Made by a program: the position numbers and the translations under genes. From a bacterium (GTDB lineage: Bacteria > Zhuqueibacterota > QNDG01), in the NCBI GenBank assembly GCA_021158245.1, contig JAGGVB010000058.1, positions 24,349 through 88,348 of the forward strand: a DNA stretch of 64,000 nt. Direction: 5' to 3'. This document shows, piece after piece, positions 17,498 to 41,340 of the stretch (positions are counted from its first letter, which is position 1; every line of letters begins with the position of its first letter). Below the pieces are notes generated by a model that was not told the origin of the DNA, made no database searches, and worked only from the letters and a program-made list of their open reading frames with translations.

Positions 17498-17500
17498 ACT

Positions 17501-18766: not shown

Positions 18767-18822
18767 TGCCGGTTTTTTAAAAAGGGAATTAATCACAGTT
18801 TGTACATATCAAGGAGGCCATA

Positions 18823-20016
18823 ATGAGTAACGGAAAAACGCTGGCGTTTGATTTTGCAGATGATGACAATGTCGTTGCAAAAATCAAAGTAATAGGTGTA
18901 GGAGGCGCAGGAGGAAATGCTATAAACCGTATGATTGAGGACGGTCTTACGGGTGTGGAGTTTATAGCAATTAATACTGATAAGCAGGCTCTTGACAACA
19001 ACAAAGCTCCTATGCGCATCCAAATAGGCAAGAATCTCACAAAAGGGCTTGGTGCGGGAGGCAATCCTGAGATGGGCCGAAAGGGGATTGAAGAGAACAA
19101 GGATGCAGTAATTGAGGCTATCTCGTCAACTGACATGGTTTTTATAACCTGCGGTATGGGCGGCGGTACAGGGACCGGAGCCGCACCTGTTGTTGCGGAA
19201 ATAGCAAAAGACCTTGGCGCACTTACTGTTGGAGTTGTTACAAAACCTTTTATGTTTGAAGGGAAAAAGAGGCAGGAGAGAGCTGCTCAGGGTATACAGA
19301 TGCTGAAAGAGAATGTTGATACTCTGATTGTTGTGCCTAACCAGAAACTGATAAGCCTTGTACCGAAACATACTCCTCTCGAACAGGCTTTCAGAGTAGC
19401 CGATGAGATTCTGCTTCATGCGACAAAGGGAATTTCTGATGTTATAAATGTTCCCGGATTGATAAACCTGGATTTTGCAGATGTCAGAACAATAATGAAT
19501 CAGATGGGTGATGCCATAATGGGTTCTTCGGTAGCAAGCGGAGAGAACAGAGCAAAAGAAGCAGCGGAGCAGGCAATATCAAGCCCTCTTATTGATGATG
19601 TATCAATCAGCGGGGCACAGGGAGTGCTTGTTAATATTACAGGCGGAAGCGATTTGAGCCTAAATGATATCAATGAAGCTACATCTGTAATTTATAATGC
19701 AGCAGGTGCTGACGCAAATATTATTTTCGGTGCAGTGATAGATAAAAGCATGAAAGAAGAAGTAAGGGTAACAGTTGTTGCAACCGGATTTCAGAAAAGC
19801 CGTTCAAAAGGCGGATTCAATTTTGGAAACGGACACGAAAAGAGAGATTTGGGCCTTTCGGAAAGTGAAGGAGACATACCGTTAATTAAAAAGTATTCGG
19901 AGGATCCCATTGTAAAAGCCATGGGAGGAGATTCCTTTGGTAATGACGGAGGCTTTTCTTTTGTCAGTAAGGATGATCTTGGAATTCCTGCTTTCATCAG
20001 AAGGAAGTTAGACTGA
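18823..20016 (+). CDS. ftsZ: Cell division GTPase FtsZ
   Basis: Tubulin signature [13 protein letters not shown] and N-terminal [18 protein letters not shown]. Confidence 0.95.
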
Positions 20017-20022
20017 TTTTAT

Positions 20023-21585: not shown

Positions 21586-21952
21586 AAAGATGAGGAGAGG
21601 AGCCGTGATAAAATCAAGTATTTCAAGGAATTCAATGCCCGATATTTTTCTTTACAAAGGACAGATGGTAATTCCGGATTATGAATTGGCAAGTTATTAT
21701 GGCGTTAATACTGATACATTGCGTGATGTTTTTGCAAAGCATGAAAGTTTGTTTCCGGGAAGTATGGTTTTTTCAGTTAAAGGTTCGGAAAAGAAGAAGA
21801 AAAGTACCACGAACAAGGCATCGGGAACATTACTTTTTACAGAGCAGTCTGCAACACTTATTGCAGGGTTGATTAAAGATACTGAAGCACTTAAAGCTAA
21901 TATGAGACTTTTGAGGCTGTTCAGGCTTCTGGATTATATTGTTGCTACGTAA
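21578..21952 (+). CDS. ORF6N (KilA-N-like) domain protein, putative DNA-binding
   Basis: YKGQMVIPDYELASYYGVNTDTLRDVFAKHESLFPGSMVFSV matches the ORF6N domain pattern (RGQ.VMLD.DLA.LYGV....L...V.RN..RFP..F.F.L). It overlaps the radical-SAM gene end by 8 nt. Confidence 0.45.
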   Translation: MIEKMRRGAVIKSSISRNSMPDIFLYKGQMVIPDYELASYYGVNTDTLRDVFAKHESLFPGSMVFSVKGSEKKKKSTTNKASGTLLFTEQSATLIAGLIKDTEALKANMRLLRLFRLLDYIVAT

Positions 21953-22017
21953 TTAGTGCTTTGCCTGATATTTTTATTTTAATAAACAAGATGTTTCTTT
22001 TAATCCTGTTTAATTGA

Positions 22018-22122
22018 GTGGAAAGTTATAAAGTGGAAAGTTATAAAGTTGAAAGTTGTAAAGTGAAAAGTTATAAAGTGGAAAGTTATAAAGTGGAAAG
22101 TTATAAAGTATAAAGCTGTAAA
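22018..22122. repeat. Tandem repeat, 7 x 15 bp (consensus GTGGAAAGTTATAAA)
   Basis: Read directly: gtggaaagttataaa x2, gttgaaagttgtaaa, gtgaaaagttataaa, gtggaaagttataaa x2, gtataaagctgtaaa; intergenic, upstream of pepF. Confidence 0.9.
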
Positions 22123-22367
22123 GCCTTCCGTTGATCCTCTGTCTATACAAAATTTTCATTTTGTTGTATAGGCCTTAAAACCACCATTGCTTTTTCTGAA
22201 GAGCTGTTTTTGTTAATAACTTAAAAAAGAATTCTATAAAATATTTTGTTTTTAACCTTGATTATTGTAATATTAAAGTTCTTAAATTGTTTCCCTGTTA
22301 ATAGAGATCAGGGAGACAAAGCAGTAAAATTAAAGGTTTAATAAAGGTTTTAAGGAGTTTTATTAAT

Positions 22368-24206
22368 ATGAAAACAGGGATTGTCAAATCACAGACACGA
22401 TCAAGACAAGAAGTATCTCAAGAATACAAGTGGAATCTGTCTGATATATTTCAATCGGATGAATCATGGCAAAAAGCAAAAGATGAATTTATAAAAAAGA
22501 TGGATGGGGTTGTCAAATACAAGAGCAGGCTTGCTTCTTCATCAAAGATATTGCTTGAGTGCCTTGAATTTAACAGCTCTCTTGAAAAAGAATTTTCAAG
22601 GCTCTATTCCTATTCCTCAATGAAATCTGATGAAGATACGAGAAATTCAAAGTATTTGGGTTTTCGTCAGGAGATGTCACAGATTGGTACTGAATATAGT
22701 GCAAAAGCTGCTTTTATTGAACCGGAGATTGCAGCAGTAGATAAAGAGGTGATAAATAATTTTCTCAGGAATGAGCAGGGCCTTAGAAAATATGAGATGT
22801 ACCTGAATGATATTTTTCGCCGTAAGGCTCATAAATTATCTGAGAAGGAGGAGAGAATCCTGGCCCTTGCCGGTATGATTACGGACGGCTCATATACAAT
22901 ATATTCAATATTTTCAAATGCAGAGATGCCTTATCCTGAAGTGAAACTGCATGACGGAACTATTGTGAAAATTGACCAGGCTGGTTTTAGCAGGTACCGT
23001 GCTTTGGCAAACAGGGAAGATAGAATTATAGTATTTGAGAAATTCTGGGAAAACTATAAAAAATTTAAATCCACCCTTGGTGCAGGCCTGTATACAAATG
23101 TAAAGAAAGATATGTTCTACGCAAAAAGCAGAGGTTATAAATCATCTCTCGAAGCAGCCCTTGATGTAAACAATATTTCGGTTTCAGTATATATATCTCT
23201 TATCAATAATGTCAATAAAAATATCGAAACGCTGTACAGGTATCTTAAAATAAAAAAAAGGCTTCTCAAAGTCGATACACTCCATTACTATGATCTCTAT
23301 GCACCGGCAGTTAAGAGTGTGGATCTTGAATTCAGTTATGACCAGGCTCGTCAGATTGTGATAGATGCACTTAAACCGCTTGGTGAAGAATATTTGTCAG
23401 TTGTAAATCGGGCATTTATTGAGAAATGGATTGATGTTTATCCTACAACCGGAAAACGTTCCGGTGCTTACAGCAATGACGGCGGATATGATGTTCATCC
23501 GTATATGCTTCTAAATTATAATGGAAAGTACAATGATGTAAGCACTTTGATTCATGAAATGGGACATTCCATGCATACTTATTTATCAAACAAAAATCAG
23601 CCTTTCCCTACGGCAGATTATTCTATTTTTGTTGCAGAGGTTGCATCTACTCTTAATGAGGCCCTTCTTATGAATAAGATGCTTTCCGAAATTGAGGATT
23701 CCGATATTAGATTGTCTCTGCTTATGGAGTATCTTGACGGAGTAAAAGGCACTCTCTTCCGTCAGACACAGTTTGCTGAGTTCGAACTGAAGATTCATGA
23801 AAAAGCTGAAAAGGGAGAGCCTCTTACAGGTGATGCACTGACTGAAATTTATATTGATATGCTGAAGAGATACTACGGCCATGATAAGGGCTTTTGTTTT
23901 ATAGATGATATGGCAGGAGTAGAGTGGGCATATATCCCTCATTTTTATTATAATTTTTATGTATATCAGTATGCGACTTCTTTTACTGCTTCCACAGCCC
24001 TTGCACTGAAGGTGATCAACAAAGAAAAGGGTGCAAAGGAAAAAGTAATTAAATTTTTATCAGCCGGGTGTTCTGAATATCCTATTGATGTCTTGAAAGT
24101 TGCAGGCGTTGATATGAACAGTTTGGAACCTTTTGATTTAACCGTTAAATATGTAAATAATGTTATGGATGAAATTGAAAAAATTTTGGCTGAGAGGGGA
24201 GAATAA
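22368..24206 (+). CDS. pepF: Oligoendopeptidase F (M3B family)
   Basis: 612 aa, HEMGH zinc motif (TLIHEMGHSMHTY), full-length PepF-like architecture. Confidence 0.85.
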   Translation: MKTGIVKSQTRSRQEVSQEYKWNLSDIFQSDESWQKAKDEFIKKMDGVVKYKSRLASSSKILLECLEFNSSLEKEFSRLYSYSSMKSDEDTRNSKYLGFRQEMSQIGTEYSAKAAFIEPEIAAVDKEVINNFLRNEQGLRKYEMYLNDIFRRKAHKLSEKEERILALAGMITDGSYTIYSIFSNAEMPYPEVKLHDGTIVKIDQAGFSRYRALANREDRIIVFEKFWENYKKFKSTLGAGLYTNVKKDMFYAKSRGYKSSLEAALDVNNISVSVYISLINNVNKNIETLYRYLKIKKRLLKVDTLHYYDLYAPAVKSVDLEFSYDQARQIVIDALKPLGEEYLSVVNRAFIEKWIDVYPTTGKRSGAYSNDGGYDVHPYMLLNYNGKYNDVSTLIHEMGHSMHTYLSNKNQPFPTADYSIFVAEVASTLNEALLMNKMLSEIEDSDIRLSLLMEYLDGVKGTLFRQTQFAEFELKIHEKAEKGEPLTGDALTEIYIDMLKRYYGHDKGFCFIDDMAGVEWAYIPHFYYNFYVYQYATSFTASTALALKVINKEKGAKEKVIKFLSAGCSEYPIDVLKVAGVDMNSLEPFDLTVKYVNNVMDEIEKILAERGE

Positions 24207-24281
24207 ATCTATCTGTTTAAAGATTTACAAAGGTCAGTGCCCTTAGATTGTTTCTTAGATTAAGAATGTTTTGCTCGTGAA

Positions 24282-25235
24282 TCAATTGTGCAGTTTCCCT
24301 AATCCTTTAATCAGTTTTACAAAAAAGTTTTCTCTCCTTAAGAATTGGAGGATTAAATCCGATATTTTGGATGTCCTCAAATAACCGAATGATTTATGGT
24401 GATTTTCTCTGTTCTTAAATACATAATCATTATATACTAACTGATCTTTTACTTTTACACCGGATTTATTTTTTCTGTATTTTGAAGCAAGAGTGTATTT
24501 AAGCGGTATTTTGTCCTCCGGATCGTAAAGATTTATCCATTGCCCTTTAATTGATTCCGGTATAGGCAGAGTTTTAACGGAATTTCTCAGCCTATGCTCC
24601 TTTTTTATTTTTTCCATTATAACAGGGATCCCGAGAGGAGAGCCTATGGTGACAAAGGTGTCGATATTCAAAATGTCCTGTTTTTTAAAAAGCACATCGT
24701 AGGCAATAATTGAACCCATTGAGTGGGCAATCAGCATAATTTTCTTTTTACGATTTTTATAAAGAACATCAAACAGACGATTTTGAATTTTTTCCCTGAC
24801 TCCGTTATCATCTGCAGATTCAGGAGAGTAGTACACATTGAGATCTTTAAACAAGTGCTTAATAAGAATGTCAGTAATGTCGGAGAAATTAATTGTGAGG
24901 TCGCTGTTTAAAAAAACTTTGGCAAATTGAGTTTCAAACAGCTCTACAATTTTATTGCTTATATTTTCATGCTCGTCATTATTAAAGCCGATACGAAGAG
25001 AGGGAACATAAGGTTCTGCAAGAAAAAGATGATGTGCAGGGTCTGTTTCAAATGCATCAAGAGGCTCTTTATGAAGAATATCAGCCCAATAAACAAGATA
25101 AAATGGAATCTGTTTCAATTTTCTTTTTTTATTCCATTCCAATCCTTCGATTATTGAATCTTTCCACCATTGTTCGAGAATTTGAACAGAAGGTTTGTTC
25201 TTCAGCCCGTGAATACCAATAATAATTTTTTTCAT
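24282..25235 (-). CDS. Alpha/beta-hydrolase, lipase/esterase-like (GXSXG nucleophile), no signal peptide
   Basis: N-terminal IGIHGL oxyanion-type motif, AHSMGS nucleophile elbow, IGSPLG downstream; resembles DUF676/PGAP1-type serine hydrolases. Confidence 0.5.
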   Translation of the reverse strand: MKKIIIGIHGLKNKPSVQILEQWWKDSIIEGLEWNKKRKLKQIPFYLVYWADILHKEPLDAFETDPAHHLFLAEPYVPSLRIGFNNDEHENISNKIVELFETQFAKVFLNSDLTINFSDITDILIKHLFKDLNVYYSPESADDNGVREKIQNRLFDVLYKNRKKKIMLIAHSMGSIIAYDVLFKKQDILNIDTFVTIGSPLGIPVIMEKIKKEHRLRNSVKTLPIPESIKGQWINLYDPEDKIPLKYTLASKYRKNKSGVKVKDQLVYNDYVFKNRENHHKSFGYLRTSKISDLILQFLRRENFFVKLIKGLGKLHN

Positions 25236-25247
25236 CTATACTCTGAT

Positions 25248-26141
25248 TCAGTCCTTGTCATTGTACCACCATTTTAGGAAGGGAAGTTCAAATTGAGAAA
25301 AAAGTTGTACTTCTCCTGCAATAAACCCGAGAACCAGTCCGGTGCGTGCAAAACCGTATATCTGCTGCCAAACAATATACAGAATGCTTCCAAAGGCTGT
25401 ATCAGGAGGAATAATCTTTATAATAGCAAGATAAATCAGGGTCAGGGCAATTGCTGCCGCAAAAAAAATAAAAAACAGACTGAGAGTTTTAAAAGGGTAA
25501 CGGAAAACAAATCTCCACCCTTCTTTTATTGAAGTTCTCATAACTCTGTTTTTAGTAAAAATTGTTCTTATCTGTGCAAAATCAAATGCTATTTTTACTA
25601 ATACCATGAGAGAACCGATAATAAGTATCTGTATAATAAGCAGAAGAAGTATCAATGATTCCGAATCAGCAGCAATGCTTTTTGCAAGAGCTGACAGAGG
25701 AATATTGAGAAGCAGAACAGGAATCAAAAACAGGATAGAGAAGAGAAAAAGCCTGATGAACCTGAAAAAGTAAAAGGAAGAATCCTTAAAAAATCCTGCA
25801 AAGGTAAATTTGTCCTCTTTTCCCATGAAGAATGATATTATACCGCCTTTAAGGAACATGTAGAAGAAAAGAAAAAAGAACAGCAGCCATATCAGCAGCA
25901 ATCCTGCAAATTGAACTGCTCCCTGGTTATATATATTAAATTCAGTAATGGAAATAGATATTATTCCTCCAGAAAAAATAGAGCCTGCGCTTAAACTCCT
26001 GCCTGCAAAGTCCCTGAATTCAGATGAAAGCGGTATTCCAATAAAAATGCTTAAAATCAGCTGAGATAAAAAGATGAAAAGCCACAATTTTATGTTGCCG
26101 AATACCTTTTTAATTGAGCTGTAAAATATTTTTATAACCAT
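25248..26141 (-). CDS. Polytopic integral membrane protein, unknown function
   Basis: About 8 hydrophobic helices and no recognisable catalytic motif; 12-bp gap to the hydrolase gene and 14-bp gap to the M1 peptidase gene. Confidence 0.4.
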   Translation of the reverse strand: MVIKIFYSSIKKVFGNIKLWLFIFLSQLILSIFIGIPLSSEFRDFAGRSLSAGSIFSGGIISISITEFNIYNQGAVQFAGLLLIWLLFFFLFFYMFLKGGIISFFMGKEDKFTFAGFFKDSSFYFFRFIRLFLFSILFLIPVLLLNIPLSALAKSIAADSESLILLLLIIQILIIGSLMVLVKIAFDFAQIRTIFTKNRVMRTSIKEGWRFVFRYPFKTLSLFFIFFAAAIALTLIYLAIIKIIPPDTAFGSILYIVWQQIYGFARTGLVLGFIAGEVQLFSQFELPFLKWWYNDKD

Positions 26142-26155
26142 GATTCCCTCTGCAG

Positions 26156-28072
26156 TTAAATAATAAGCGTGATTATATGAAATATTGCCTGATAGAATGA
26201 AATTAAATTAGAAGTGAAGTACAGAATGGGCCTGTTTTTTATTTCAGCGGTTTTAGAATTGTTTGTATGATTTGAATCAAGCAGAAGTTTTCCGCCAGGA
26301 TCTACGGCAGCAGAGAGGATTTTGTCAGGTCTTATAAAAGTGTATTTTTTCCATCTGTCTTTACCGTCCCAGGCGAATTTCAATGAATCCCCGCTGTCAA
26401 ATACAATTAGTACATCAACAGGGAGCACAGCTTCTCCTTTTCGGTAAATTTTCACAACAGAGCGGAATAGATTTTTTTTGCTGTTTAATTCTGTTTTTGC
26501 GGAATCTGAGAATATGCCTTTGGGTTTACGTACTTTATGACAGAAGGCAGATTCAACCTTATAATCAAGTTCAAGGGAATTTTTTAAAAATTGATCAAAA
26601 TAAAAATTATAGTCCTTCCCTGTTACTTCATTTACAATTTTTATAAAATCCTCAGAATGGGGGTGTTTAAATTTCCAGCGGTCAAAGTACGTGCGGAATA
26701 TTTTTTTCATATTATCAGTGCCGATAATGTTTTCAAGAGTTCTCAGCATAAGTACAGATTTCTGGTAGGAGAAAAGAGAATAACCTCCGCCTATATAGGT
26801 CCATGACGGCCTCAGTATTCTGTCAAGCCTTGCTTTGCCTATGTACGCGGAGCGGGCATTGGAAATTTCTCCGATTTTTATTCCTGCAAAGTCTATCAGG
26901 GATGTTTCTTGTCCGTAATACTTGTCCATTATTTTAGATTCAAAATAGCTGTTAATTCCTTCATCAAGCCATGCTTCCTCAAATTCGTTGCTCCCTACAA
27001 TGCCGTACCAGAATTGATGGCCGAATTCATGGACAACAACCATCTCTACAAATCTCAGGCCTTTGGGTATATTCCAGATAGTACCGCCTGTAATAAACTG
27101 GGGGTATTCCATTCCGGATGCCCTGAATGCTCCTGTAGGAGGATGCAGTATTGTGATATGGCTGTAAGGATATTTTCCTGCCCATTCTTCAAAGAAATCG
27201 AGGTCATGTCTGATTGCAGTAAAACTGCGTTCTACTGAAGATTCATGGTCTTTTTCATAAATCAGAGAGATTCTGATGCCTTTGTAAGTTATCTCTTTTT
27301 TTAGAAAATGGGGCCATGCTGTCCATGCAAAATCATGAACATCTTCGGCATAAAAAGTCACTTTTTTTGAGCTGTCAATTTGTTTTACATCGGTTTTTAT
27401 TCCTGTTGCTTCAATCTTAAAATTTGAAGGAAGAGTTATGCTTACGTTATACTTTCCATAATCTGAAAAGAATTCACTGTTTCTATGAAATTGATGGCAG
27501 TTCCATTTTCCGTTTTTTTCAAATACACCAACTTTTGGGAACCATTGCCCTGCGAGAAAGAAATTTTTATAAAATCCTGTTCTTGCGTAAATTGGAGGGA
27601 ACTGAGTTGTAAAATTCAGGTTGAGAGTTATTGAGGCTCCGGGGAGTACCGGCCTTTTGAGTTTGAGCAATGCAACTGTCCTGTCATAAGAATTGCTGTC
27701 ATCCGGCTGAACAAAATAAAGATTTCCCGTTAAATCTATTCCCCTGTAATCGGATATATGATTTATCTTAACCCATCCCCATTGATTTTTTTTCTCAAGG
27801 AGTTTTGCCTTTCCGCCTGCTTCTTTAATAAATGTTGAATAGTTATTTTTAAAAGCATTCATGTAGAGATGAAAATATATCTCTTTGGCAGGTTTTGATG
27901 TGATGTTTTTCCAAATAATGGTTTCTTTGCCGGAAATTTGCTTCTTTTGTACATCAAGAGTTACATCAATAGTGTAAGAAGCATTCCTCGGACTTCGCGG
28001 AGCAGATGATTGAGACCAGAGTAGTGAGTGGAGGATGAGGATAAAAATGCATATTCGAAGATGCTGTTTCAT
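26156..28072 (-). CDS. Secreted M1-family zinc metallopeptidase (aminopeptidase N-like)
   Basis: N-terminal signal peptide, gluzincin motif HEFGHQFWYG followed by WLDEGINSY (third zinc-ligand Glu). Confidence 0.8.
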   Translation of the reverse strand: MKQHLRICIFILILHSLLWSQSSAPRSPRNASYTIDVTLDVQKKQISGKETIIWKNITSKPAKEIYFHLYMNAFKNNYSTFIKEAGGKAKLLEKKNQWGWVKINHISDYRGIDLTGNLYFVQPDDSNSYDRTVALLKLKRPVLPGASITLNLNFTTQFPPIYARTGFYKNFFLAGQWFPKVGVFEKNGKWNCHQFHRNSEFFSDYGKYNVSITLPSNFKIEATGIKTDVKQIDSSKKVTFYAEDVHDFAWTAWPHFLKKEITYKGIRISLIYEKDHESSVERSFTAIRHDLDFFEEWAGKYPYSHITILHPPTGAFRASGMEYPQFITGGTIWNIPKGLRFVEMVVVHEFGHQFWYGIVGSNEFEEAWLDEGINSYFESKIMDKYYGQETSLIDFAGIKIGEISNARSAYIGKARLDRILRPSWTYIGGGYSLFSYQKSVLMLRTLENIIGTDNMKKIFRTYFDRWKFKHPHSEDFIKIVNEVTGKDYNFYFDQFLKNSLELDYKVESAFCHKVRKPKGIFSDSAKTELNSKKNLFRSVVKIYRKGEAVLPVDVLIVFDSGDSLKFAWDGKDRWKKYTFIRPDKILSAAVDPGGKLLLDSNHTNNSKTAEIKNRPILYFTSNLISFYQAIFHIITLII

Positions 28073-28122
28073 AGTACCTCTCCCTGAAAAATTGCCCTTT
28101 GTTCATGATTAATATTATGCTG

Positions 28123-29856
28123 TTACGATGATTCCTCCAGCTTTTTTTTAAGCTCGTTAATTTTTTGCGTGTATTTTTCGGTGTCTTCGGGGTATTTCTC
28201 AATTAATATTTCGTAAACCTGAATTGCCTTTTTAAACTGCCCCTGTGCCGAGTATATCTCTCCAAGAGTAGGGCTTACAATTTTAAGAGAGCTTTTTTCC
28301 CCATTGTCTGCATCTTCTTCCGGTTCCGGCTCCGGTTTTGGTTCCGAAATATCATTTTGCTGCTCAGCGGGCTGTTCTGTTATTCCCTGCCCGGTGTCTT
28401 CGTTAATTTCCGATAGAGGTTCGGGAGATTCTTCTTGTACTTTTTTTTCTGCAATTTGTTCGGTTATCTCTGCGTCAGAAACATCGGTAATAGATTCTTC
28501 CTGTTCCTCTGATACTGTATCATCAGCAGGGATCTCTTCAGTTGAATCGGGAATTTCAATTTCCGGCTCCTTATCTTCAGCAGAAACAGTATCCCGGCCT
28601 GAAGAAACTTCGGCATCTTCATCTTTAAACAATTGATCGCTTATTCCGGGTTCGTCGAATTCTTCATCTTTAAAGAAATCAATACTCTCTTCTTCAGAAG
28701 AAGATACAGGTACCTGTTCTGCTGTGTCTTGACTTCCCTGATCTGTAGTTCCTGTTATATTTGAAAGAAAGCCTTCTTCAAAGAATGGTTCGTCAGATGT
28801 ATCTTCCGGTTTAACATCCGTATCTTCATCAGGCAGCAGGATGTCCTTTAAATGTTCATCTTCGGTGTAGAGATTTTCAGTTTCGGATTTTTGATTTATG
28901 GCCTGATTTATATCATTGACTATTTCATCAAGTCCTGTGTCAGGCAGATTTTCGTTAATATCAGGCTCTGAAATATTCTTTTCGGCAAGTTCCGGTTCAT
29001 CCTCCGGAAGAGCCGCACTATTTTTGCCAGCTTCCTTTTCCTCTTCTGTTTCGGATTTATTCTCAGGCTGTTTTTCAAACAGCTTTTCAGCATTGTTAAT
29101 AGTATTTTCAAGTTCTTGGTTTTTATTATCGTTCCCGGAAGAAGCTGAAATATCGTCGAGGTCAAAATCCGAAAGATCCAACTCCCCTGAATAGCTTTCA
29201 TTAGATTTATTGTCAGCAGAATGATCTTCGGATATTTTATTGAGGCCTTCTCCTGATGCGGCAAATTTTTCAAGATCAAATTCGGAAAGATCCAATTCGG
29301 AATTTTTTGAAGATGAAGCCTCGCCTGCCTTGATATTAAGCTCCTGTTTTTTCTGTGAGACCTTTTCACTGCGTTCAAAAATAGGGGGAGTACCGGATAT
29401 CCACTCTTTTTCTTTGGGGCCGGAATATACGTTTTTACCTTCAGGAGGTTTTACTGAAAATGAAAAAGTATCCAGCATCTGTGCTGTCTCTTCGTCAAGA
29501 GGATCTATTTCAAGAATGTCCCTGTAATGAATAGCAGCCTGATTTTCCCATCCGATTCTTGCCATAAGGTCGCCGAGTAGTTTATGGGCATGAAGGAATA
29601 AACGATCATGTGATATGACTTTTTTAAGAGCCTCTTCTGCTTTTTCTCTTAAATTTTTTGCAATGTATGCTTTTGCAAGTACAAAGTGTCCTGTGACATA
29701 AGAAGGGGATGCCTGAATGCCCTGCTCAAGCAGATTTATTGCATCATCAATTCTGCCCTGTTCAAGATAGAGCCCTGCAAGGCGGGCAAACACAAGGGAT
29801 TTAGGGTTATTCTTTATAATATTTTCAAGAGATTGAGTAATGTTTTTATCATTCAT
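28123..29856 (-). CDS. TPR-repeat protein with ~330-aa acidic (D/E/S-rich) low-complexity central region
   Basis: N-terminal TPRs (LVFARLAGLYLEQGRIDDAINLLEQGIQASP...) and a C-terminal TPR (LGEIYSAQGQFKKAIQVYEILIEKYPED). The central region has internal repeats ELDLSEFDLEKF / ELDLSDFDLDDI. Confidence 0.6.
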   Translation of the reverse strand: MNDKNITQSLENIIKNNPKSLVFARLAGLYLEQGRIDDAINLLEQGIQASPSYVTGHFVLAKAYIAKNLREKAEEALKKVISHDRLFLHAHKLLGDLMARIGWENQAAIHYRDILEIDPLDEETAQMLDTFSFSVKPPEGKNVYSGPKEKEWISGTPPIFERSEKVSQKKQELNIKAGEASSSKNSELDLSEFDLEKFAASGEGLNKISEDHSADNKSNESYSGELDLSDFDLDDISASSGNDNKNQELENTINNAEKLFEKQPENKSETEEEKEAGKNSAALPEDEPELAEKNISEPDINENLPDTGLDEIVNDINQAINQKSETENLYTEDEHLKDILLPDEDTDVKPEDTSDEPFFEEGFLSNITGTTDQGSQDTAEQVPVSSSEEESIDFFKDEEFDEPGISDQLFKDEDAEVSSGRDTVSAEDKEPEIEIPDSTEEIPADDTVSEEQEESITDVSDAEITEQIAEKKVQEESPEPLSEINEDTGQGITEQPAEQQNDISEPKPEPEPEEDADNGEKSSLKIVSPTLGEIYSAQGQFKKAIQVYEILIEKYPEDTEKYTQKINELKKKLEESS

Positions 29857-29972
29857 GCTTTGACCTGTTGAATAATTTAAATGTTTTCACCTGGGGGAAT
29901 CTAAAAAATGTATTAATAATTACCTTTAATGACAAGCATTTTTCTCAAATTAATGTATAAATTTTAAGTTTT

Positions 29973-30479
29973 TTACCAACCTGAAACTGTTTTGTTAAGA
30001 ATATCTGTTGTAAGTTTTGATACTGCATCTTTAATTCCCTGATTTCTGTCGCTTTCATATTGGCCCCACTGAGACCAGGTCTCTTCCCAGAATACTTTAC
30101 GCTTTTTCACATCTTCAAAAGATACTTTAATGTTAATTGTAATTCTGTACGATGAAGCGTTTTCATTAGCATCGTACTGTCCTGCCCTGTCTGTAATCTG
30201 AAGTATTGTTCCCTTTAAAATGGAATCTGCATTTCGTGTGTCTGCTATTTTTAAAGTATTGTCTGCGGATATAGCCTCAATTAATGCATCTGTAATCTGC
30301 TGGTCAATGCCGAATTCCGGAGTGTTATTTTCAAAAAGAGGGATTCCTACTGTTTTGATATTAGATGGAATAGTGGATCCGGAAAAAGAGTAGATTCCGC
30401 AGCCTGCAGAAAATCCGAGAAAAGCAAAAATAAAAATAAATAAAATATATTTCAGGATATCCGCAATTTTAATCTTCAA
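29973..30479 (-). CDS. Lipoprotein, LptE-like (LPS-assembly) by pattern
   Basis: Lipobox LGFSAGC, and a small alpha/beta layout loosely resembling LptE (lipobox-C then IKTVGIPLF...[14 protein letters not shown]). 11-nt overlap with the upstream sigma-54 activator gene. The family assignment is tentative. Confidence 0.4.
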
Positions 30480-31626
30480 GATTGTGCTCCTTTATCTTTC
30501 TGTATAGAGTTCTTTCGCCTATTCCAAGGGCCCTTGCTGCTTTTCTTCTGTTGCCCTTAAATTTCCTTAAAGCTTGTTCAATAAGAATTCTTTCCATGTC
30601 TCTGAGGTTGAAATTTGTATCTTCCTGTGCAATCGGCTGATCTATGGGAGTTGCAGGCAGTTCGGAAGAAATCGGATGAGGAATTGGCTTATACGGAGGA
30701 TTATAGTTTTTTCTGATAAAGGTTCTGATATCTTCCACAGCAAGCCTTAAATCCACCAGTGCCCTGTATATCAGCTCACGCTCGGCCTGATCCGGAGACT
30801 TATTTAAAACAACAGGCAGATTTCTGTCATCTTCGGGGATAGTTGTTTTAAGATGTGAAGTAAGAAGGGCTTCATCTATTTTTTCACCTTTTCCAAGGAT
30901 CAAAACCCGTTCTACTACATTTTTTAACTCGCGGATATTTCCGGGCCACGGATTTTGTTCGAGCAGCCGGAACGCATCTGCTGTAAACCCTCTGAACGGA
31001 ATGTTATTTTTTTCACTTAGCTCTCTTGCAAAATACAGAGCAAGCATTCTTATGTCGTCCCTTCTCTTTCTCAATGGGGGGAGTTGTATATTTACTGCGT
31101 TTAGCCGGTAAAAGAGGTCTTTGCGGAATTCACCTTTTGAAACAGCCTGTTCAAGATTTTGGTTTGTCGCTGCAATAACTCTCACATCTGTTCGGATGGA
31201 TGTTGTGCCTCCAACCCTCATAAATTCCTGCGTTTCAAGTACACGAAGCAGCCGCACCTGGGTGGACAGGGGCATTTCTCCGATCTCATCAAGAAAAAGC
31301 GATCCTCTGTCTGCAATTTCAAAATAACCTTTTCGTTTTTCTGTTGCGCCTGTAAATGAGCCTTTTTCATGCCCGAACAGCTCACTCTCCAGCAACCCTT
31401 CGGGAATTGCTCCGCAGTTTACAGTAACTATCGGGTTCTGAGCTCTCGGGCTTAACAAGTGAATTGCCCTTGCTATTTTTTCCTTGCCTGTTCCGCTTTC
31501 TCCTGTAATCAGTACAGTTATCTGCAATGGAGATACCTGCTTAACCGTCTCAAGTACTTTAAGAAACTCGTCAGACTTTCCTATGATACCGAGAGATGAG
31601 ATAATACTGTTTGCTTTTTTTTCCAT
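30469..31626 (-). CDS. Sigma-54-dependent transcriptional activator (bEBP), AAA+ plus Fis-type HTH, no N-terminal regulatory domain (PspF-like architecture)
   Basis: Walker A GESGTGKE at about residue 42, GAFTGA variant [15 protein letters not shown], Walker B/R-finger region and C-terminal HTH ([21 protein letters not shown]). Confidence 0.85.
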
Positions 31627-32370
31627 TCAGATCCTCAAAATATCTCCATCATTGAGTAAAACAACATTCCGGTCGGAATTATCGAATTTTCCGTCCGGAT
31701 TAAAATCCGGCGGGAAATGAGTGAGAGCTATTTTTTTAATATTAAATTTTTCTGCAAATGAAAGAACCGAATCCATTGAAATGTGGGCAGTTTCAGAAAT
31801 AAGAAGGGGAGAGTTAAAAGCATAATCTCTCAGATGGTTTAATGACCGGACATCAGACGAGTAGATTGCCTTTTTATTTCTTTCTGTGATGATAATGCTG
31901 AAACTGTACACATTCTCATTAAATTTTTCCCCTTGCTTTCCGGCATTCAGATGATCATTGCCTGCTGCTGTTAAAGAAAGGCTGCTATTTTTAAAAAAAA
32001 TACCATTTTTCAAAGGCCTGAAAATAAGCCTGAACGGAAGCGTTTCAGGCCTGATTCTCATGTAAGGTAAAAAGGTTCGGAATGCATCGCATAAATATTC
32101 AGGTGCATAGATTATGAAATCATTTTTACGTTCAGTTAGTTTCATCCAGAACAGAAGGCCGAAAATGCCGGCAGAATGATCAATATGAGCATGAGTGATT
32201 ACTCCTGCATCAATTTCTGCCGGATCAATGCCGAATTTTGCAAGCTGACGTGCCGTACCGTCACCTATATCAAGCAGTATTTTTGTACTGTCTGCCTGCA
32301 GAATCAGGCATGAACTTCCCCTGTTTGGAACAGGCATACTGGATGATGTACCGATAGCCTGTAAAATCAT
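31627..32370 (-). CDS. MBL-fold metallo-hydrolase (RNase Z/ElaC-like size)
   Basis: HAHIDHSAG (HxHxDH) motif; 247 aa. Confidence 0.7.
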   Translation of the reverse strand: MILQAIGTSSSMPVPNRGSSCLILQADSTKILLDIGDGTARQLAKFGIDPAEIDAGVITHAHIDHSAGIFGLLFWMKLTERKNDFIIYAPEYLCDAFRTFLPYMRIRPETLPFRLIFRPLKNGIFFKNSSLSLTAAGNDHLNAGKQGEKFNENVYSFSIIITERNKKAIYSSDVRSLNHLRDYAFNSPLLISETAHISMDSVLSFAEKFNIKKIALTHFPPDFNPDGKFDNSDRNVVLLNDGDILRI

Positions 32371-33290
32371 TTTAATTTATTCTTAAAAAAATTAACGGTT
32401 TCTTCTATCCCCTGTTCAAGGCTGCGTGAGGGTTCCCATTCCAGAACTTTTTTTGCTTTGTCGAAACTAATTACACTGCGCTGCTGTTCCCCTGGTTTTG
32501 CAGGGCCGTGCTTTTCTTCGGCATCTGCACCTATTGCTTTGTTTATCATACTGAAAAGTGTATTAACATCTGTCTCAATGCCTGTGCCGACGTTAAAAAT
32601 ATTATTACCGTCTATGTTCAAACCTGCCATGTTGGCTCTGACTACATCCTTTACAAATACATAATCTCTCGTCTGAAGTCCGTCGCCGTTTATTACAGGC
32701 TTTTCTCCTTTGAGAAGTCTTTCTGTGAATATAGCAACAACTCCTGCTTCTCCGTGGGGATTTTGTCTTGGGCCGTAAACATTTGCATATCTGAAGATTG
32801 TATATTTTAGATTGTATTCTCTTGCATAGAAAAACAGGTATTTTTCCACTGCGAGTTTTGTGATGCCATAAGGCGAGACCGGACGGGTAGGGTGTGTTTC
32901 ATCACACGGGAATACATCCTGATCTCCGTAAATCGCTCCGCCTGTAGATGCAAACATAAAACGCTTTACTTTGTATTTAACAGCATTCTGTAAGAGGTTC
33001 AATGTACCTTTGACATTTACATCTGCGTCAAACAGAGGCTCTTTCACAGACCTTCTTACATCCATTTGTGCTGCGTGGTGACAAACAATGTCAAATTTTT
33101 CAATGCTGAATATTTTATCAATTTGTTCGGCTCTTATATCAATAAGATAGAACTTGGCTTTGGGGTTAAGGTTCGCAATGTTCCCTGCCTCAAGGTTGTC
33201 AATTACAACAACATCGTGCCCCTGGTTTATAAAGCCGTCTGTAATGTGTGACCCAATAAAACCTGCACCGCCGGTTACGAGTATCTTCAC
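32367..33290 (-). CDS. NAD-dependent sugar-nucleotide epimerase/dehydratase (SDR extended family)
   Basis: TGGAGFIGSH Rossmann motif and YxxxK catalytic motif (SPYGITKLAVE). Confidence 0.85.
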   Translation of the reverse strand: MKILVTGGAGFIGSHITDGFINQGHDVVVIDNLEAGNIANLNPKAKFYLIDIRAEQIDKIFSIEKFDIVCHHAAQMDVRRSVKEPLFDADVNVKGTLNLLQNAVKYKVKRFMFASTGGAIYGDQDVFPCDETHPTRPVSPYGITKLAVEKYLFFYAREYNLKYTIFRYANVYGPRQNPHGEAGVVAIFTERLLKGEKPVINGDGLQTRDYVFVKDVVRANMAGLNIDGNNIFNVGTGIETDVNTLFSMINKAIGADAEEKHGPAKPGEQQRSVISFDKAKKVLEWEPSRSLEQGIEETVNFFKNKLK

Positions 33291-33454
33291 TAATTCCTCC
33301 TGTTAAATCCGTATGAATTGTATACATGAATTATAGTAATAAGCAGGGAAAAAATCAAGATATTATGTTATATGAAATAATAATTATAATTAACGGCAGG
33401 ATCGTTAGGTTATGAAGATAAAAAAAGGTTGATAAAAAGAATATTTTCACGTAG

Positions 33455-35560
<2,106 letters not shown>

Positions 35561-35579
35561 TCTGAATAAAAAAGATGGT

Positions 35580-36740
35580 ATGATAAATAATACAAATATA
35601 CAGACAGATGAGCTTGAAGTTTACAGCAGGCGGAATCTTGTTATAGTAAGAGGGAGTGGATCCCGTTTATGGGACGAGAATGGCGATGAATACATTGATT
35701 GTGTCGGTGGGATAGGTGTCGCTTCCATAGGACATGCCAATGAGTTTTTAAGATCAGCCTTGTCAGATCAGGCAGGAAGGCTGATCAGCGTGTCTAATCT
35801 TTTTTACAATGATACAAGGATGCTTCTTGCTAAAAAACTCACAGGAATTGCTCCGGAATACTTAAACAGGGTATATCTGTGTAATTCCGGTACTGAAACA
35901 ATGGAAGCTGCAATCAAGTTTGCAAGACTGTCTTCGGGAAAGACGGATTTTGTATGCGCGAAAAGAGGATTTCACGGCAGGACTATGGGCGCTTTGAGCG
36001 CCACATATAAAGAGCAGTATAAAAAACCTTTTGAACCTTTGGTACCGGGTTTTAAGTTTGCAGAGTTTAATGACCTTAATGCTTTTATCAACTCTGTTGA
36101 TACAGACACAGCTGGGATAATTATTGAAATTATCCAGGGTGAAGGAGGAATTTATCCTGCTGATCAGGAATTTGTACAAGGACTGGGCAGGTTCTGCTCT
36201 GAAAATGATATACTCATTATAATTGATGAAGTGCAGACAGGAATAGGGCGTACAGGATCAATGTTTGCTTTTGAGCAGTACGATATTAAGCCTGACATTG
36301 TTACTATTGCAAAGGGCCTTGGCGGAGGAGTCCCAATCGGCGCCGTCCTTGTATCGGATAAAATTCCGAAAATGCCCGGGAAGCACGGATCAACATTCGG
36401 AGGGAATCCTCTGTCATGTTCTGCGGCTCTTGCTGTCATCGAATTTATTGAGAGTAACGCTCTTGTCAGAGAGGCAGGCATAAAAGGGGATTATTTTGTT
36501 TCTCTTATAAAAAGTAAAAGACTGCCTGCTGTAAAAGAGATAAGGCACAGGGGGCTTATGATAGGAATTGAGCTCACTATACCGGTAAAAAGTATTGTGC
36601 TTTTAATGCAGCGCCGAGGTGTTCTTGTACTGACAGCAGGAGAAAACGTGATAAGGCTTTTACCTCCGCTGGTTATTACAAAGGAAGAACTTAAAATAGC
36701 TGCTGATGTTCTGGAAAGCGCACTTGAATCAGTTCAATAA
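35580..36740 (+). CDS. Class III PLP aminotransferase, acetylornithine/succinyl-DAP aminotransferase family (ArgD/DapC-like)
   Basis: DEVQTGIGRTG PLP-lysine region (ATAKGLGGG); start placed at ATG 35580 after the ligA stop (the track ORF starts inside ligA). Confidence 0.8.
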   Translation: MINNTNIQTDELEVYSRRNLVIVRGSGSRLWDENGDEYIDCVGGIGVASIGHANEFLRSALSDQAGRLISVSNLFYNDTRMLLAKKLTGIAPEYLNRVYLCNSGTETMEAAIKFARLSSGKTDFVCAKRGFHGRTMGALSATYKEQYKKPFEPLVPGFKFAEFNDLNAFINSVDTDTAGIIIEIIQGEGGIYPADQEFVQGLGRFCSENDILIIIDEVQTGIGRTGSMFAFEQYDIKPDIVTIAKGLGGGVPIGAVLVSDKIPKMPGKHGSTFGGNPLSCSAALAVIEFIESNALVREAGIKGDYFVSLIKSKRLPAVKEIRHRGLMIGIELTIPVKSIVLLMQRRGVLVLTAGENVIRLLPPLVITKEELKIAADVLESALESVQ

Positions 36741-36773
36741 TTTATATGATACATTAAATGTAATGAGGTATGA

Positions 36774-37865
36774 ATGCTTGATAATCCGGTGTTTACACAG
36801 AAGAGAAGAATAACAAGAGAAGTGTTTGCCGGCAAGGTGGCAATTGGAGGCCAGTCACCTGTGACTGTCCAGTCCATGACAAATACAAAAACAGACGATG
36901 TTGAAAGTACTGTTGAACAGATAAGAGTCCTTTCTGCAGCAGGATGTGATATAATACGAGTTGCAGTACCTGATAAAAAAGCCGGATATGCAATCCCTGC
37001 AATAAAAGAGCAGATCAATATCCCTCTTGTTGCTGACATACATTTTGATTATCGTCTGGCTCTTCTTGCAATTGAAATGGGAGCGGACAAAATCAGAATT
37101 AATCCGGGAAATATCGGGTCTGAAGAGCGTGTGGCAAAGATACTCGAAGCAGCATCTTTAAAAAGTATTTCAATAAGAATAGGAGTAAACAGCGGCTCAC
37201 TTGAAAAAGATATACTCTCAAAGTACGGCCACCCGGGAGCACAGGCTCTTGCGGAGAGCGCTCTGCGCCACATTAAATTTTGTGAGAAACATGGATTTTA
37301 CGATATTGTTGTTTCTGTAAAAGCTTCCGATGTAGGAGTGATGATAGAAGCAAACAGAATTGTATCAAAAGAGACAGATTATCCTGTCCATCTCGGAGTA
37401 ACAGAATCGGGAAGCGTAAAGAGCGGAGTAATTCGTTCGGCAGTCGGAATAGGCACGCTTCTCGCAGAAGGAATAGGAGATACCATACGTGTATCCCTTA
37501 CAGGAGATAATGCTGAGGAGATAAGAGCAGGATTTACAATATTAAATTCTCTCCATCTCAGGAAAAAAGGCGTTACTATAATTTCATGCCCTACATGCGG
37601 ACGTACAGAGACTGATGTAACAAGCATTGTTGAGGAACTTGAAGAGGCTTTAAAGGATATCGATAAACCGGTTGTTGTTGCTGTAATGGGATGTGCTGTA
37701 AACGGTCCCGGCGAGGCTCGGGAAGCAGATATCGGTGTTGCATGCGGAAAAAATGAAGGGCTGCTTTTTAAAAAAGGCGAGGTGATTAAAAAAATTCCCG
37801 AGAAGGATATCGTATCTGTGCTGAAAAAGGAGGTGGATGAGTGGAAGGAGAATAGCGAAAAGTGA
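36774..37865 (+). CDS. ispG: 4-hydroxy-3-methylbut-2-enyl diphosphate synthase IspG (GcpE)
   Basis: TIM-barrel region (VADIHFDYRLAL) and C-terminal 4Fe-4S Cys triad (ISCPTCGRT...MGCAVNGPGE). Confidence 0.9.
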   Translation: MLDNPVFTQKRRITREVFAGKVAIGGQSPVTVQSMTNTKTDDVESTVEQIRVLSAAGCDIIRVAVPDKKAGYAIPAIKEQINIPLVADIHFDYRLALLAIEMGADKIRINPGNIGSEERVAKILEAASLKSISIRIGVNSGSLEKDILSKYGHPGAQALAESALRHIKFCEKHGFYDIVVSVKASDVGVMIEANRIVSKETDYPVHLGVTESGSVKSGVIRSAVGIGTLLAEGIGDTIRVSLTGDNAEEIRAGFTILNSLHLRKKGVTIISCPTCGRTETDVTSIVEELEEALKDIDKPVVVAVMGCAVNGPGEAREADIGVACGKNEGLLFKKGEVIKKIPEKDIVSVLKKEVDEWKENSEK

Positions 37866-37960
37866 ATAGTAAAAAGGGAATAGGGCCTGGGCGTCCGTTT
37901 TTTGACATTTTTTAAAGGGAATTCTCAGATGCCGGCAAAAAAAGGTCAGTTATTGAATCT

Positions 37961-38036
37961 ACAAACTTTATGAACTTTACAAACTTTATGAACTTTATAA
38001 CTTTATGAACTTTATAACTTTATGAACTTTATAATT
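37961..38036. repeat. Tandem repeat, about 8 x 9 bp (AACTTTATG/A), 17-bp higher-order unit AACTTTATGAACTTTATA
   Basis: CTTTAT recurs at 37966, 37975, 37984, 37994, 38001, 38010, 38018 and 38027. The core TTTATAACTTT is the reverse complement of AAAGTTATAAA in the 22018-22122 array. Confidence 0.85.
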
Positions 38037-38066
38037 TCCAACTCTTTCCCGGAAGAACCAATAGTT

Positions 38067-39440
38067 TTAACCTTCAAGCCCTGATTCATTAATAAGCAAT
38101 TGCTCAAGAGATTGGGGCTTTCTGATTATTTTTATTTCTCCTTCTGAAGTAAGCATAAGCTCTGCTGCCTGAAGATAGGAGTTGTAGTTAAACGGTGCAA
38201 GGGATGAGCTGTAAGCCCCTGTGCCGCCTATTATAATATAATCCCCTGTCTCAGGTTTTACCATTGCACGGGGAGCAACTGTACCGTCTTCATTTAAACA
38301 TTGTGAATCGCCTGTTTCACAGCATCTGCCTACAATTACACCTGGAACAGAGCTGTTAGCAGAACTCATATAATCGGACCACAGCAGATTTCCATGTTTT
38401 GCTACAATATAAAATGGATGTCTGGCGCCGTACATAAGCGGGCGCGGATTTGATTCCATTCCTCCGTTCAGAAGAAAGAACCAGAAGGTCTCGTCTTTAT
38501 TTGGTTTTATGTCAATTACTGAAGTTACAAGATAACCGCTGTTTGCAACAGCATATGTACCCGGTTCAATCTCAAGAATTATTTTTCTTCCTGTCTGCCT
38601 GTAAAAATTTATAAATTTCTCTTTTGTATATTCTCCCAGCTCTGTCGTGTCTGCGGCGGTTTCGTCAGGCATGCGTGCAACTTTGAACCCTCCTCCGAGA
38701 TTTATTATTCGGACGTCAGGGAAAAATCTTTCAACAGTGCTCAGAGTTTTGTTAACATTTTTCTTCCAGTCTTCAGGATTGCTTCCTGATCCTATATGCA
38801 CATGGATGCGGGTGAATTTAATATTGTTTTCCTCTGCAAAGGAGAGAACTTTGGGAAGTTCCGACTCCTGTACTCCAAAACTTGCATAATGATCACCTGT
38901 GTTTCTTGTGGCAGATGCTCCTGAACCCTGTCCAGGGTGAATCCTTATGGAAAGATCAATTTTGTTCTTAATTACAAATGATGCGATGTTTTTAAGCTGG
39001 AGAAAAGAGCACACGGTGTATTTAAGCCCTTTTTTCATCATATTTTGAAGAAGGATAAGATCTTCTCCATGCGGGACATCCTGGCTTGTAAGAAGGATTT
39101 TATTAAAAGATATCCCTGCAATACAGGCTCTTGCAGCTTCGTTTAAAGAGCCTGCGTCAAACATCATGCCCTGTTTTTTTATGAGTTCAAGTACAGCCCT
39201 TGACGGATTTGCTTTGATAGCGTATCTCACATTTATTCCAAATGCGTTCGGCATTCCCGTTAATGTACTGCACTGCCTCTCAATCATACTACCATCATAA
39301 AAGTAAAAGGGAGTTTCGCACATTCCTGCCGCGTTAAGAATGTCTCTGCTTGTTATATTTCCTTCAGGAAAGAGTTTATCTTTTGGCAAAAAATCAGTAT
39401 TAATATTTAAATCGGCCACATTAAGCTCCATGTTCCACAT
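38067..39440 (-). CDS. lysA: Diaminopimelate decarboxylase-like (Orn/DAP/Arg decarboxylase family 2)
   Basis: PLP-lysine motif YAIKAN, HPGQGSG, HVHIGSG, GGGF and CCETGD motifs of alanine-racemase-fold decarboxylases; overlaps the upstream aspartokinase gene by 20 nt and follows a lysine riboswitch. Confidence 0.6.
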   Translation of the reverse strand: MWNMELNVADLNINTDFLPKDKLFPEGNITSRDILNAAGMCETPFYFYDGSMIERQCSTLTGMPNAFGINVRYAIKANPSRAVLELIKKQGMMFDAGSLNEAARACIAGISFNKILLTSQDVPHGEDLILLQNMMKKGLKYTVCSFLQLKNIASFVIKNKIDLSIRIHPGQGSGASATRNTGDHYASFGVQESELPKVLSFAEENNIKFTRIHVHIGSGSNPEDWKKNVNKTLSTVERFFPDVRIINLGGGFKVARMPDETAADTTELGEYTKEKFINFYRQTGRKIILEIEPGTYAVANSGYLVTSVIDIKPNKDETFWFFLLNGGMESNPRPLMYGARHPFYIVAKHGNLLWSDYMSSANSSVPGVIVGRCCETGDSQCLNEDGTVAPRAMVKPETGDYIIIGGTGAYSSSLAPFNYNSYLQAAELMLTSEGEIKIIRKPQSLEQLLINESGLEG

Positions 39441-40854: not shown

Positions 40855-41050
40855 GATATTTTTAAAGTCCCGGAATGATTAAATAGCGCTCCACGGACTG
40901 TTCCGTGACAGACCGGCTGTTGTTCACGAACCGGGCCGACAAACAAACTTGCGGATATTTGTCTGTCTCGGCCTGCTTTCCTTTCTTTTCCGGGAAAATT
41001 GCCTCCGCGGGCATCCCCGAAAGGTACTGATAAAACAGGCACCTCTATCT
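40855..41050 (-). promoter_or_regulatory. Lysine riboswitch (L-box, Rfam RF00168-like) aptamer
   Basis: Minus-strand RNA starts ...UAGAUAGAGGUGCC...AGUA and contains GAAAGG...GCCGAG, CUGUCACGGAAC and GUGGAGCGCUAUUU. These parallel the conserved L-box segments of the B. subtilis lysC leader (GAUAGAGGUGCGAAC...GAGUA, GGCUGUCAAGAAA, UGGAGGGCUAUCU). It lies 5' of lysC-lysA, with a -35 TTGCAT / -10 TATTAT promoter at about complement(41065-41093). Confidence 0.65.
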
Positions 41051-41340
41051 AATCGAATTTGAATATAATAAAGAATGAAATGCATTGATGCAAGCATTTT
41101 CTGTAAAAATTAAAATATTTGTTGTGTTTAAAGGGGAAAATCGTATATTTTTAGTGTAGCATCCGATATCAATGTTTATCCCTTACTTCCCGGATTATAC
41201 TGCTAATGATTTTTAATTATCATCTATAACAGCCCTGAGCTGGAATCTGCTTCGGGCTGTTTTTATAAATTATTGCATAATTTTTTGAGATAATTTAACA
41301 CGATTTGTTTGTTAATAAATTTAATTACACTTCGTAAATT

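Follow-up and report, generated by a model that had tools for sequence, protein, structure and literature searches.

Long simple sequence repeats, with units of 5-11 nt, occur sporadically in prokaryotes, and in the portion of the work that is relayed by a later paper heptamers are the commonest of them, most are intergenic, their distribution among lineages is sporadic, and their length is thought to change by polymerase slippage (Mrazek et al., 2007, via PMC4679880). The two arrays described here, which lie in one window (the whole stretch of bacterial DNA under analysis, 64 kb in length), are like such repeats, or VNTRs, in being made of short head-to-tail units, in being intergenic, in exceeding chance and in varying in copy number between strains. 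Unlike them, the repeat in the window is a 15- or 17-nt dimer of unequal 7-9-nt modules with an AAAGT core, and arrays with this core occur in different phyla and keep a fixed polarity at gene ends.

The sole close analogue that emerged from our keyword searches of the literature is the TAACTGA heptamer, which forms direct repeats in Beggiatoaceae, Cyanobacteria and some Bacteroidetes (MacGregor, 2015; PMC4679880). Those repeats stand in one orientation right before starts that lack a Shine-Dalgarno sequence, with the reverse orientation seen just after a stop; they are missing in close relatives that have the same gene neighbours, contigs end in them, a link to rearrangement has been suggested, and an RNA-level role with a single-strand-binding protein has been proposed (PMC4679880). 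The AAAGT arrays are similarly intergenic, built of short units, found in distant phyla including Bacteroidetes and absent in close relatives, and the ACTTT-strand unit ATAACTTT contains TAACT. They differ in having 7-9-nt modules instead of a strict heptamer and in unit sequence, those in the window stand 3' of genes, and the source organism is neither a member of the Beggiatoaceae nor a cyanobacterium. No TAACTGA array was found here, and an AACTGAT-class unit is absent from the commonest tandem-repeat units of the other loci that we sampled (below).

Two further systems invite comparison. The STRR heptamers of cyanobacteria, said to have been described by Mazel and colleagues in 1990, are reportedly tandem 7-nt intergenic units present in many copies per genome; they share with the AAAGT arrays the tandem arrangement of short units in intergenic regions and differ in their units (e.g. 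CCCCAGT) and in lineage, and we know of no rule of gene-end polarity for them. The REP and BIME elements of enterobacteria are imperfect palindromes of ~35 nt, dispersed between genes and mobilized by RAYT transposases. The initial annotation of this stretch had suggested a shared, REP-like repeat family, and the first half of that suggestion stands: the same module set forms a large dispersed intergenic family elsewhere, often as inverted neighbours, as REP elements are. The likeness to REP itself does not hold, since the units are tandem and not palindromic and the window arrays have neither significant folding nor a partner arm; no RAYT gene was seen in the 64-kb window. A literature search by exact array sequence returned nothing relevant, and the keyword searches found no description of an AAAGT family. 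The kind of element is known, being a short-unit tandem repeat; the AAAGT family with its gene-end polarity was not found described in the literature.

Two arrays built from one module set

The Pfam gene calls give the order ftsZ, a radical-SAM gene, ORF6N, array 1, pepF and, farther along, ligA, an aminotransferase gene, ispG, array 2, lysA and the aspartokinase gene (Table 1), in agreement with the initial annotation, which had the two arrays bracket the segment from pepF to ispG. The source bacterium is uncultured. Identical copies of the ispG protein are recorded in NCBI, JGI, ENA and Logan data, and its closest named homologues, from candidate division KSB1 and Calditrichia, have at most 65% identity; a look-up of the exact pepF product turned up none identical to it. 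The arrays recur in separate JGI, ENA and Logan assemblies and are therefore not assembly artefacts.

Table 1. Arrays and neighbouring genes, with positions counted from the first nucleotide of the window
Feature	Position	Strand	Basis and remarks
ORF6N-domain gene	21578-21952	+	Pfam PF10543; stands before array 1
Array 1	22017-22123	+	Tandem Repeats Finder: period 15, consensus AGTGGAAAGTTATAA
pepF, oligoendopeptidase F family (Peptidase_M3)	22368-24206	+	Pfam PF01432/PF08439; downstream of array 1
ispG (GcpE)	36774-37865	+	Pfam PF04551 and homologs; convergent with lysA
Array 2	37964-38034	-	Tandem Repeats Finder: period 17, 4.1 copies, 96% matches, score 126, consensus AACTTTATGAACTTTAT
Array 2, degenerate terminal modules	38035-38044	-	Direct reading of the sequence
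lysA, diaminopimelate decarboxylase family	38067-39431	-	Pfam PF02784/PF00278; 454-aa call on 6 contigs
Aspartokinase gene, beyond lysA		-	Pfam

Array 2, which had been annotated at 37961-38036 and which Tandem Repeats Finder confines to a span inside those limits, has a 17-mer unit in which a 9-nt module is joined to an 8-nt one. On the minus strand it can be read as eight AAAGT-anchored modules, in which GTTCATAAA and GTTATAAA alternate and two modules at the far end are GTTTGTAAA variants. Its outer edge at 38026-38044, which in reverse complement is GAGTTGGAAATTATAAAGT, is similar to the start of array 1, GAGTGGAAAGTTATAAAGT. Array 1 (6.2 copies up to 22109, 92% matches and a score of 165 in Tandem Repeats Finder) has a dimer unit of GTGGAAA (7 nt) and GTTATAAA (8 nt) and comprises about 13 AAAGT-anchored modules, with GTTGAAA, GTTGTAAA and GTGAAAA as variants. 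From the Tandem Repeats Finder output, the units can also be given as ATAACTTT and ATGAACTTT. These two arrays are the only features of the window to which Tandem Repeats Finder gives a score above 100, and a regular expression for at least three modules found two arrays in the window and 0-1 in shuffles of it.

The period of 15 nt leaves one frame of array 1 open, so that translation of 22019-22112 on the plus strand would give (VESYK)n, about 30 aa long, and a 30-aa gene was called there by JGI on contig L023; this is probably no real gene. Array 2 is non-coding, placed as it is between the convergent stop codons of ispG and lysA, and has no sustained reading frame because a period of 17 nt is not divisible by three.

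The claim that array 2 carries the core of array 1 in reverse complement is borne out by word counts. The 11-mer AAAGTTATAAA occurs seven times in the 64 kb, five times on the plus strand in array 1 and twice on the minus strand in array 2, and nowhere else. The longest word common to the two arrays, AAAGTTATAAAGTT, measures 14 nt and appears only when array 2 is reverse-complemented before comparison with array 1; compared directly, the two share words of at most 6 nt. AT-richness and low complexity characterize both arrays, and the initial annotation had named chance sharing of the 11-mer, given such AT-richness, as a possible explanation. Dinucleotide-preserving shuffles, however, lead one to expect 0.18 copies of the 11-mer in place of the seven observed, all of which are in the arrays, and in a composition-matched null (20,000 arrays made from the shuffled 17-nt unit) a shared word of at least 14 nt has P = 1e-4 (2/20,000) and one of at least 11 nt has P = 0.003. 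The modules shared by arrays 1 and 2 exceed chance, and with the same module set present in hundreds of other arrays, a fortuitous likeness between two unrelated repeats has an almost negligible probability.

With respect to the neighbouring genes, array 2 starts 31 nt 3' of the lysA stop, reading AAAGT in the lysA sense, and lies 99 nt 3' of the ispG stop, reading ACTTT in the ispG sense. Array 1 is situated 65 nt 3' of the ORF6N stop, with AAAGT in the sense of that gene, and 245 nt 5' of pepF, upstream of which an AAGGAG Shine-Dalgarno sequence stands; to judge from this sequence, a Shine-Dalgarno site seems to be in use in the source organism. The aspartokinase-lysA operon, which has array 2 at its 3' end, is preceded by a lysine riboswitch (Rfam RF00168, 104 bits, 40876-41055 on the minus strand). 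Searches of 37700-38200 and 21500-22500 for a terminator-like site (a G+C-rich hairpin followed by a T run) found none, and neither a sigma-70-type promoter nor a canonical terminator rose above background at either array. Rfam matched no family to the arrays, RNA folding of the window arrays gave no significant structure (z = -0.83, -0.79 and +0.42), and no partner arm for a hairpin was found nearby, both arrays being unpaired.

Orientation of the 16-kb segment and changes in array length

The initial annotation had considered the two arrays as a possible pair of recombination sites and an inversion of the 16 kb between them as conceivable. The arrays are indeed inverted with respect to each other and have 14 identical nt in common, several contigs break at them, and a synteny breakpoint relative to other genomes coincides with array 1. 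Known invertible segments, such as the Hin/Gin/Fim-type switches and the shufflons, resemble this arrangement in having inverted repeats around a segment; in addition, they are served by a recombinase gene of their own, within the segment or alongside it, have defined crossover sites and occur in populations in both orientations, and none of these features was seen here. No recombinase, integrase or invertase Pfam domain was found in the genes from ftsZ to aspartokinase, and RecA-dependent recombination usually requires a stretch of identity longer than 14 nt.

We aligned to the window all assembled contigs that encode the exact ispG, lysA or FtsZ protein. Array 2 is crossed by eight contigs (L001-L004, L014-L016 and L018) and array 1 by four (L020, L021, L024 and L026), every one of them in reference order, and no inverted junction, which for the annotated segment would be an inverted configuration of 22123-37960, was seen in the assembled contigs of any sample. 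The spanning contigs come from JGI 3300016457 and from ENA ERZ23499350, ERZ23499370 and ERZ23499183, and the Logan contigs stop within the arrays. Eight contigs halt inside an array (L005, L006, L017, L019, L022, L023, L027 and L028), which fits the way in which assemblers break at repeats. Contig L026 folds back at 5121-5617, where window 22730 down to 22234 follows in reverse complement right after 17205-22330; with its join at window 22330/22730, outside array 1, it looks like an assembly or amplification chimera. In the ENA scaffold L020, positions 13698-13799 omit window 22524-23355 within pepF, probably a scaffolding gap and the cause of a truncated 282-aa pepF call.

Comparison with relatives lends the inversion no support either. 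The adjacency of ispG and lysA is kept in relatives that lack the array, and the rearrangement breakpoints relative to them are the ORF6N-pepF spacer and a site upstream of ligA, not array 2. Taken with the spanning contigs, the position of the L026 join, the want of a recombinase domain and the shortness of the identity, this makes a switch that inverts the pepF-to-ispG segment very improbable.

What does vary is the length of the arrays. In sample ERZ23499183, array 2 is shorter by one 17-nt unit in contig L018 and array 1 by one 15-nt unit in contig L024, from a strain whose identity to the window is 98.7% over 6.6 kb. All near-identical assemblies have both arrays, and the next relatives have neither: ispG and lysA are adjacent without an array in a relative with 90% ispG identity (158-nt spacer) and in one with 74% (10-nt spacer), and in the relatives with radical-SAM identities of 76% and 56%, ORF6N is followed by 287 and 520 nt of spacer in which there is no array. 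Overall, about 73 kb of the source genome contains two AAAGT arrays and about 70 kb from relatives contains none. Single-unit changes in both arrays, combined with their absence in the nearest relatives, indicate that these are young, slippage-prone repeats.

In the 90% relative, the ispG-lysA spacer (L007:8577-8734) contains a modular inverted repeat of another kind, GGGAATAGGGATATAGGGGAATA ... TATACCCCTATTCCTATT, and remnants of the GGGAATAG module (Tandem Repeats Finder period 14) are also found in the window, at the end of ispG (37845-37883). Array 1, for its part, sits at a synteny breakpoint (window 21953-22367 compared with L270:11930-12217 and L271:11913-12434). In the 76% and 56% relatives ORF6N is followed by a dapE-like gene, aspartokinase, dapB, dapA and dapD, and in the window what comes next is pepF, the first displaced gene, and a block of ~11 kb that ends upstream of ligA; array 1 may be tied to this rearrangement.

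The gene order of the relatives also bears on the possibility that the arrays are sites in duplex DNA to which a nucleoid protein or a regulator binds, co-ordinating the genes on either side. Sites for cooperative binding are typically tandem short motifs, and the gene that adjoins array 1, ORF6N, encodes a KilA-N-like DNA-binding domain. However, ORF6N stands beside the radical-SAM gene in relatives without an array (L270-L272), and because they retain the gene without it we reject ORF6N as a dedicated binder of array 1. Moreover, the arrays are not conserved in relatives, the 7-, 8- and 9-bp spacing would place successive motifs on different faces of the helix, and array 2 lies between convergent stops, where a promoter is not expected. 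We consider duplex binding improbable.

In our preferred reading, array 2 is probably a young slippage-prone repeat of the long simple sequence repeat or VNTR kind, and a 3'-side member of the AAAGT family that is described below. It would have arisen and changed, as array 1 would have, through replication slippage. At most it may serve as an unstructured tail or spacer at the convergent junction, A-rich in the lysA sense and U-rich in the ispG sense, and it is unlikely to act as a sequence-specific switch.

The AAAGT family and its polarity at gene ends

A scan of genomes, one per species, with the pattern AAAGTTATAAAGTN{2,4}AAAGT gave at least 120 matches, the source genome not being among the matches listed, and at least 120 were likewise obtained from metagenome contigs with a 26-nt pattern. 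When the loci among the matches listed were searched with a regular expression for arrays (at least three AAGT anchors at 7-9-nt spacing), the metagenome loci yielded 219 arrays in 758 kb, compared with 3 in shuffles, and the named-genome loci 212 arrays in 874 kb. By record title, the 120 named loci among the matches listed include ~49 from Patescibacteria and ~40 from Bacteroidota/Ignavibacteria, with Firmicutes nearly absent. Only 7 matches were in viral contigs, mostly giant-virus bins, and the arrays are therefore not a phage feature.

The module of the family can be written GT-N(2-4)-AAA, 7-9 nt long and AAAGT-anchored. The loci were sampled through arrays that contain GTTATAAA, which inflates the share of this module; alongside it the family includes GTTCATAAA, GTTTATAAA, GTTTGTAAA, GTTGAAA and GTAGAAA. 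Every module of the window arrays (GTTCATAAA, GTTATAAA, GTTTGTAAA, GTGGAAA, GTTGAAA, GTTGTAAA and GTGAAAA) occurs in the family, and the arrays are longer than its norm, with 8 and ~13 modules against 3-5. A further 415 arrays of period 7-9 in the sampled loci lack the search pattern, and 42% of these hold AAAGT. Altogether the loci (L030-L269) contain 798 tandem arrays of period 7-9 and 14-17 in 1.6 Mb, with other units such as GACTAGC, GGTGACA and CAATACAA; given these many other short units, AAAGT is one class of a broader habit of short-module repeats.

The arrays of the family have a fixed polarity with respect to genes. Where two arrays lie within 60 nt of each other in the sampled loci, AAAGT is followed by ACTTT in 82 pairs and the reverse order was not observed (0). 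Measured on crude longest-ORF gene calls, the median distance after a stop is 6 nt for AAAGT-sense arrays (70% within 30 nt) and 91 nt for ACTTT-sense arrays (26%), and before a start it is 16 nt for ACTTT-sense arrays (59% within 30 nt) and 97 nt for AAAGT-sense arrays (31%). The tRNA genes, with 13 adjacent cases, served as a check on these distances: of the arrays that precede a tRNA by no more than 40 nt, all eight have ACTTT in the tRNA sense, and of the five on the 3' side of one, four have AAAGT, in agreement with the polarity in 12 of 13 cases. The general rule would be that the sense strand reads ACTTT immediately upstream of a gene and AAAGT immediately downstream.

The window arrays obey the 3'-side AAAGT rule at 31 and 65 nt from the stop, compared with the family median of 6 nt, and both would be unpaired 3'-side arrays, array 2 behind lysA and array 1 behind ORF6N. 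Their opposite orientation, which had suggested an inverted pair of sites, is accounted for by this rule, because each reads AAAGT in the sense of its preceding gene (ORF6N on the plus strand, lysA on the minus strand). Judged by sequence and polarity, arrays 1 and 2 belong to the AAAGT-module family.

On the 5' side, a Shine-Dalgarno-like 4-mer is present in only 2 of 105 spacers between an ACTTT array and a start codon. In the sampled loci (L030-L269) the last ACTTT module before a start often ends in AACTAA, AACTCA or AACTGA, followed after 4-10 nt by ATG, and these module ends recall TAACTGA.

Paired arrays are found immediately downstream of a tmRNA gene and also separate tRNA genes. In a Candidatus Magasanikiibacteriota locus (L066) they are also present as hairpin insertions in the 16S rRNA gene, at 3137-3208 and 3524-3600, one immediately ahead of the GGAGGAAGG region and the other at the tip of the helix that follows CCCGTCACACC, and further pairs in this locus border the 16S gene and a tRNA gene next to it.

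We considered whether the pairs are exact complementary hairpins or inverted duplications and found that their arms pair at -0.657 kcal/nt, compared with -0.685 kcal/nt for unrelated arms (p = 0.89). No hidden hairpin partner was found for single arrays, either in the window or in general. With arms no more complementary than those drawn from different loci and no hidden partner, a pair is best described as two independent arrays. Ordinary terminators were likewise rejected as an explanation for the pairs: 5 are in convergent, 9 in divergent and 49 in tandem spacers, compared with a background of 12%, 12% and 76%, and this background-like spread makes them a poor fit to simple terminators. In tandem contexts, moreover, they leave ~14 nt to the next start, and pairs also occur inside the 16S rRNA gene.

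Repeats, RNA elements and gene boundaries

The main rival to slippage as an explanation is that the arrays are functional RNA elements at the gene ends of lysA and ORF6N, setting transcript ends, processing or stability. Several properties of the family speak for such a role. The polarity is tied to gene ends, those of tRNA genes included; the mixture of 7-9-nt modules in one array suits recognition of a single strand better than phased binding to duplex DNA; pairs follow the tmRNA gene, separate tRNA genes and form hairpin insertions in 16S rRNA; and ACTTT arrays stand in for a Shine-Dalgarno-like sequence before starts, to judge from its scarcity in the spacers noted above. Around both window arrays a canonical terminator is absent, and similar proposals have been made for the TAACTGA repeats (PMC4679880). 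On the other hand, close relatives with the same gene neighbours have no arrays, the window arrays are unpaired and unstructured, their copy number varies, the source apparently makes use of a Shine-Dalgarno site (that before pepF), and a binding protein is only putative. On balance we regard an RNA-element function of the window arrays as unlikely. Were they to act in this way, the modes that can be envisaged are recognition by a Csp-, S1- or Hfq-like single-strand binder or pairing with ACUUU leaders, and these too we consider rather unlikely.

A broader form of this idea would make the AAAGT/ACTTT arrays an undescribed punctuation of gene boundaries that is common to several phyla (Patescibacteria, Bacteroidota and relatives), with the window arrays as working 3'-end elements of lysA and ORF6N. 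U-rich ACUUU repeats would serve as a leader immediately upstream of genes, those for tRNAs among them, and would often replace a Shine-Dalgarno site, and complementary AAAGU repeats would serve as a trailer immediately downstream; neighbouring caps would pair into intercistronic hairpins, which would be present even as expansion segments of a 16S rRNA, and the arrays would be read by a conserved factor that binds single strands or acts in processing. We hold this to be doubtful and put it forward as a speculation. For the locus itself we return to slippage: the arrays themselves are ordinary variable repeats.

For the window, these results remove the idea of an invertible 16-kb segment. They identify arrays 1 and 2 as variable loci, usable as strain markers, at which short-read assemblies break. 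The AAAGT family and its gene-end polarity are an interesting by-product of the analysis, since the same modules recur in hundreds of intergenic arrays of Patescibacteria and Bacteroidota with a strict polarity at gene ends, and several cultured Flavobacteriia carry AAAGT arrays, with Flavobacterium sp. Root901, Flavobacterium sp. JAS, Mariniflexile gromovii KCTC 12570 and Ochrovirga pacifica S85 among the cultured carriers. If the polarity reflects a function, which such strains would make testable, it would bear on how transcripts are delimited or processed, and on how translation starts, in bacteria that make little use of the Shine-Dalgarno sequence.
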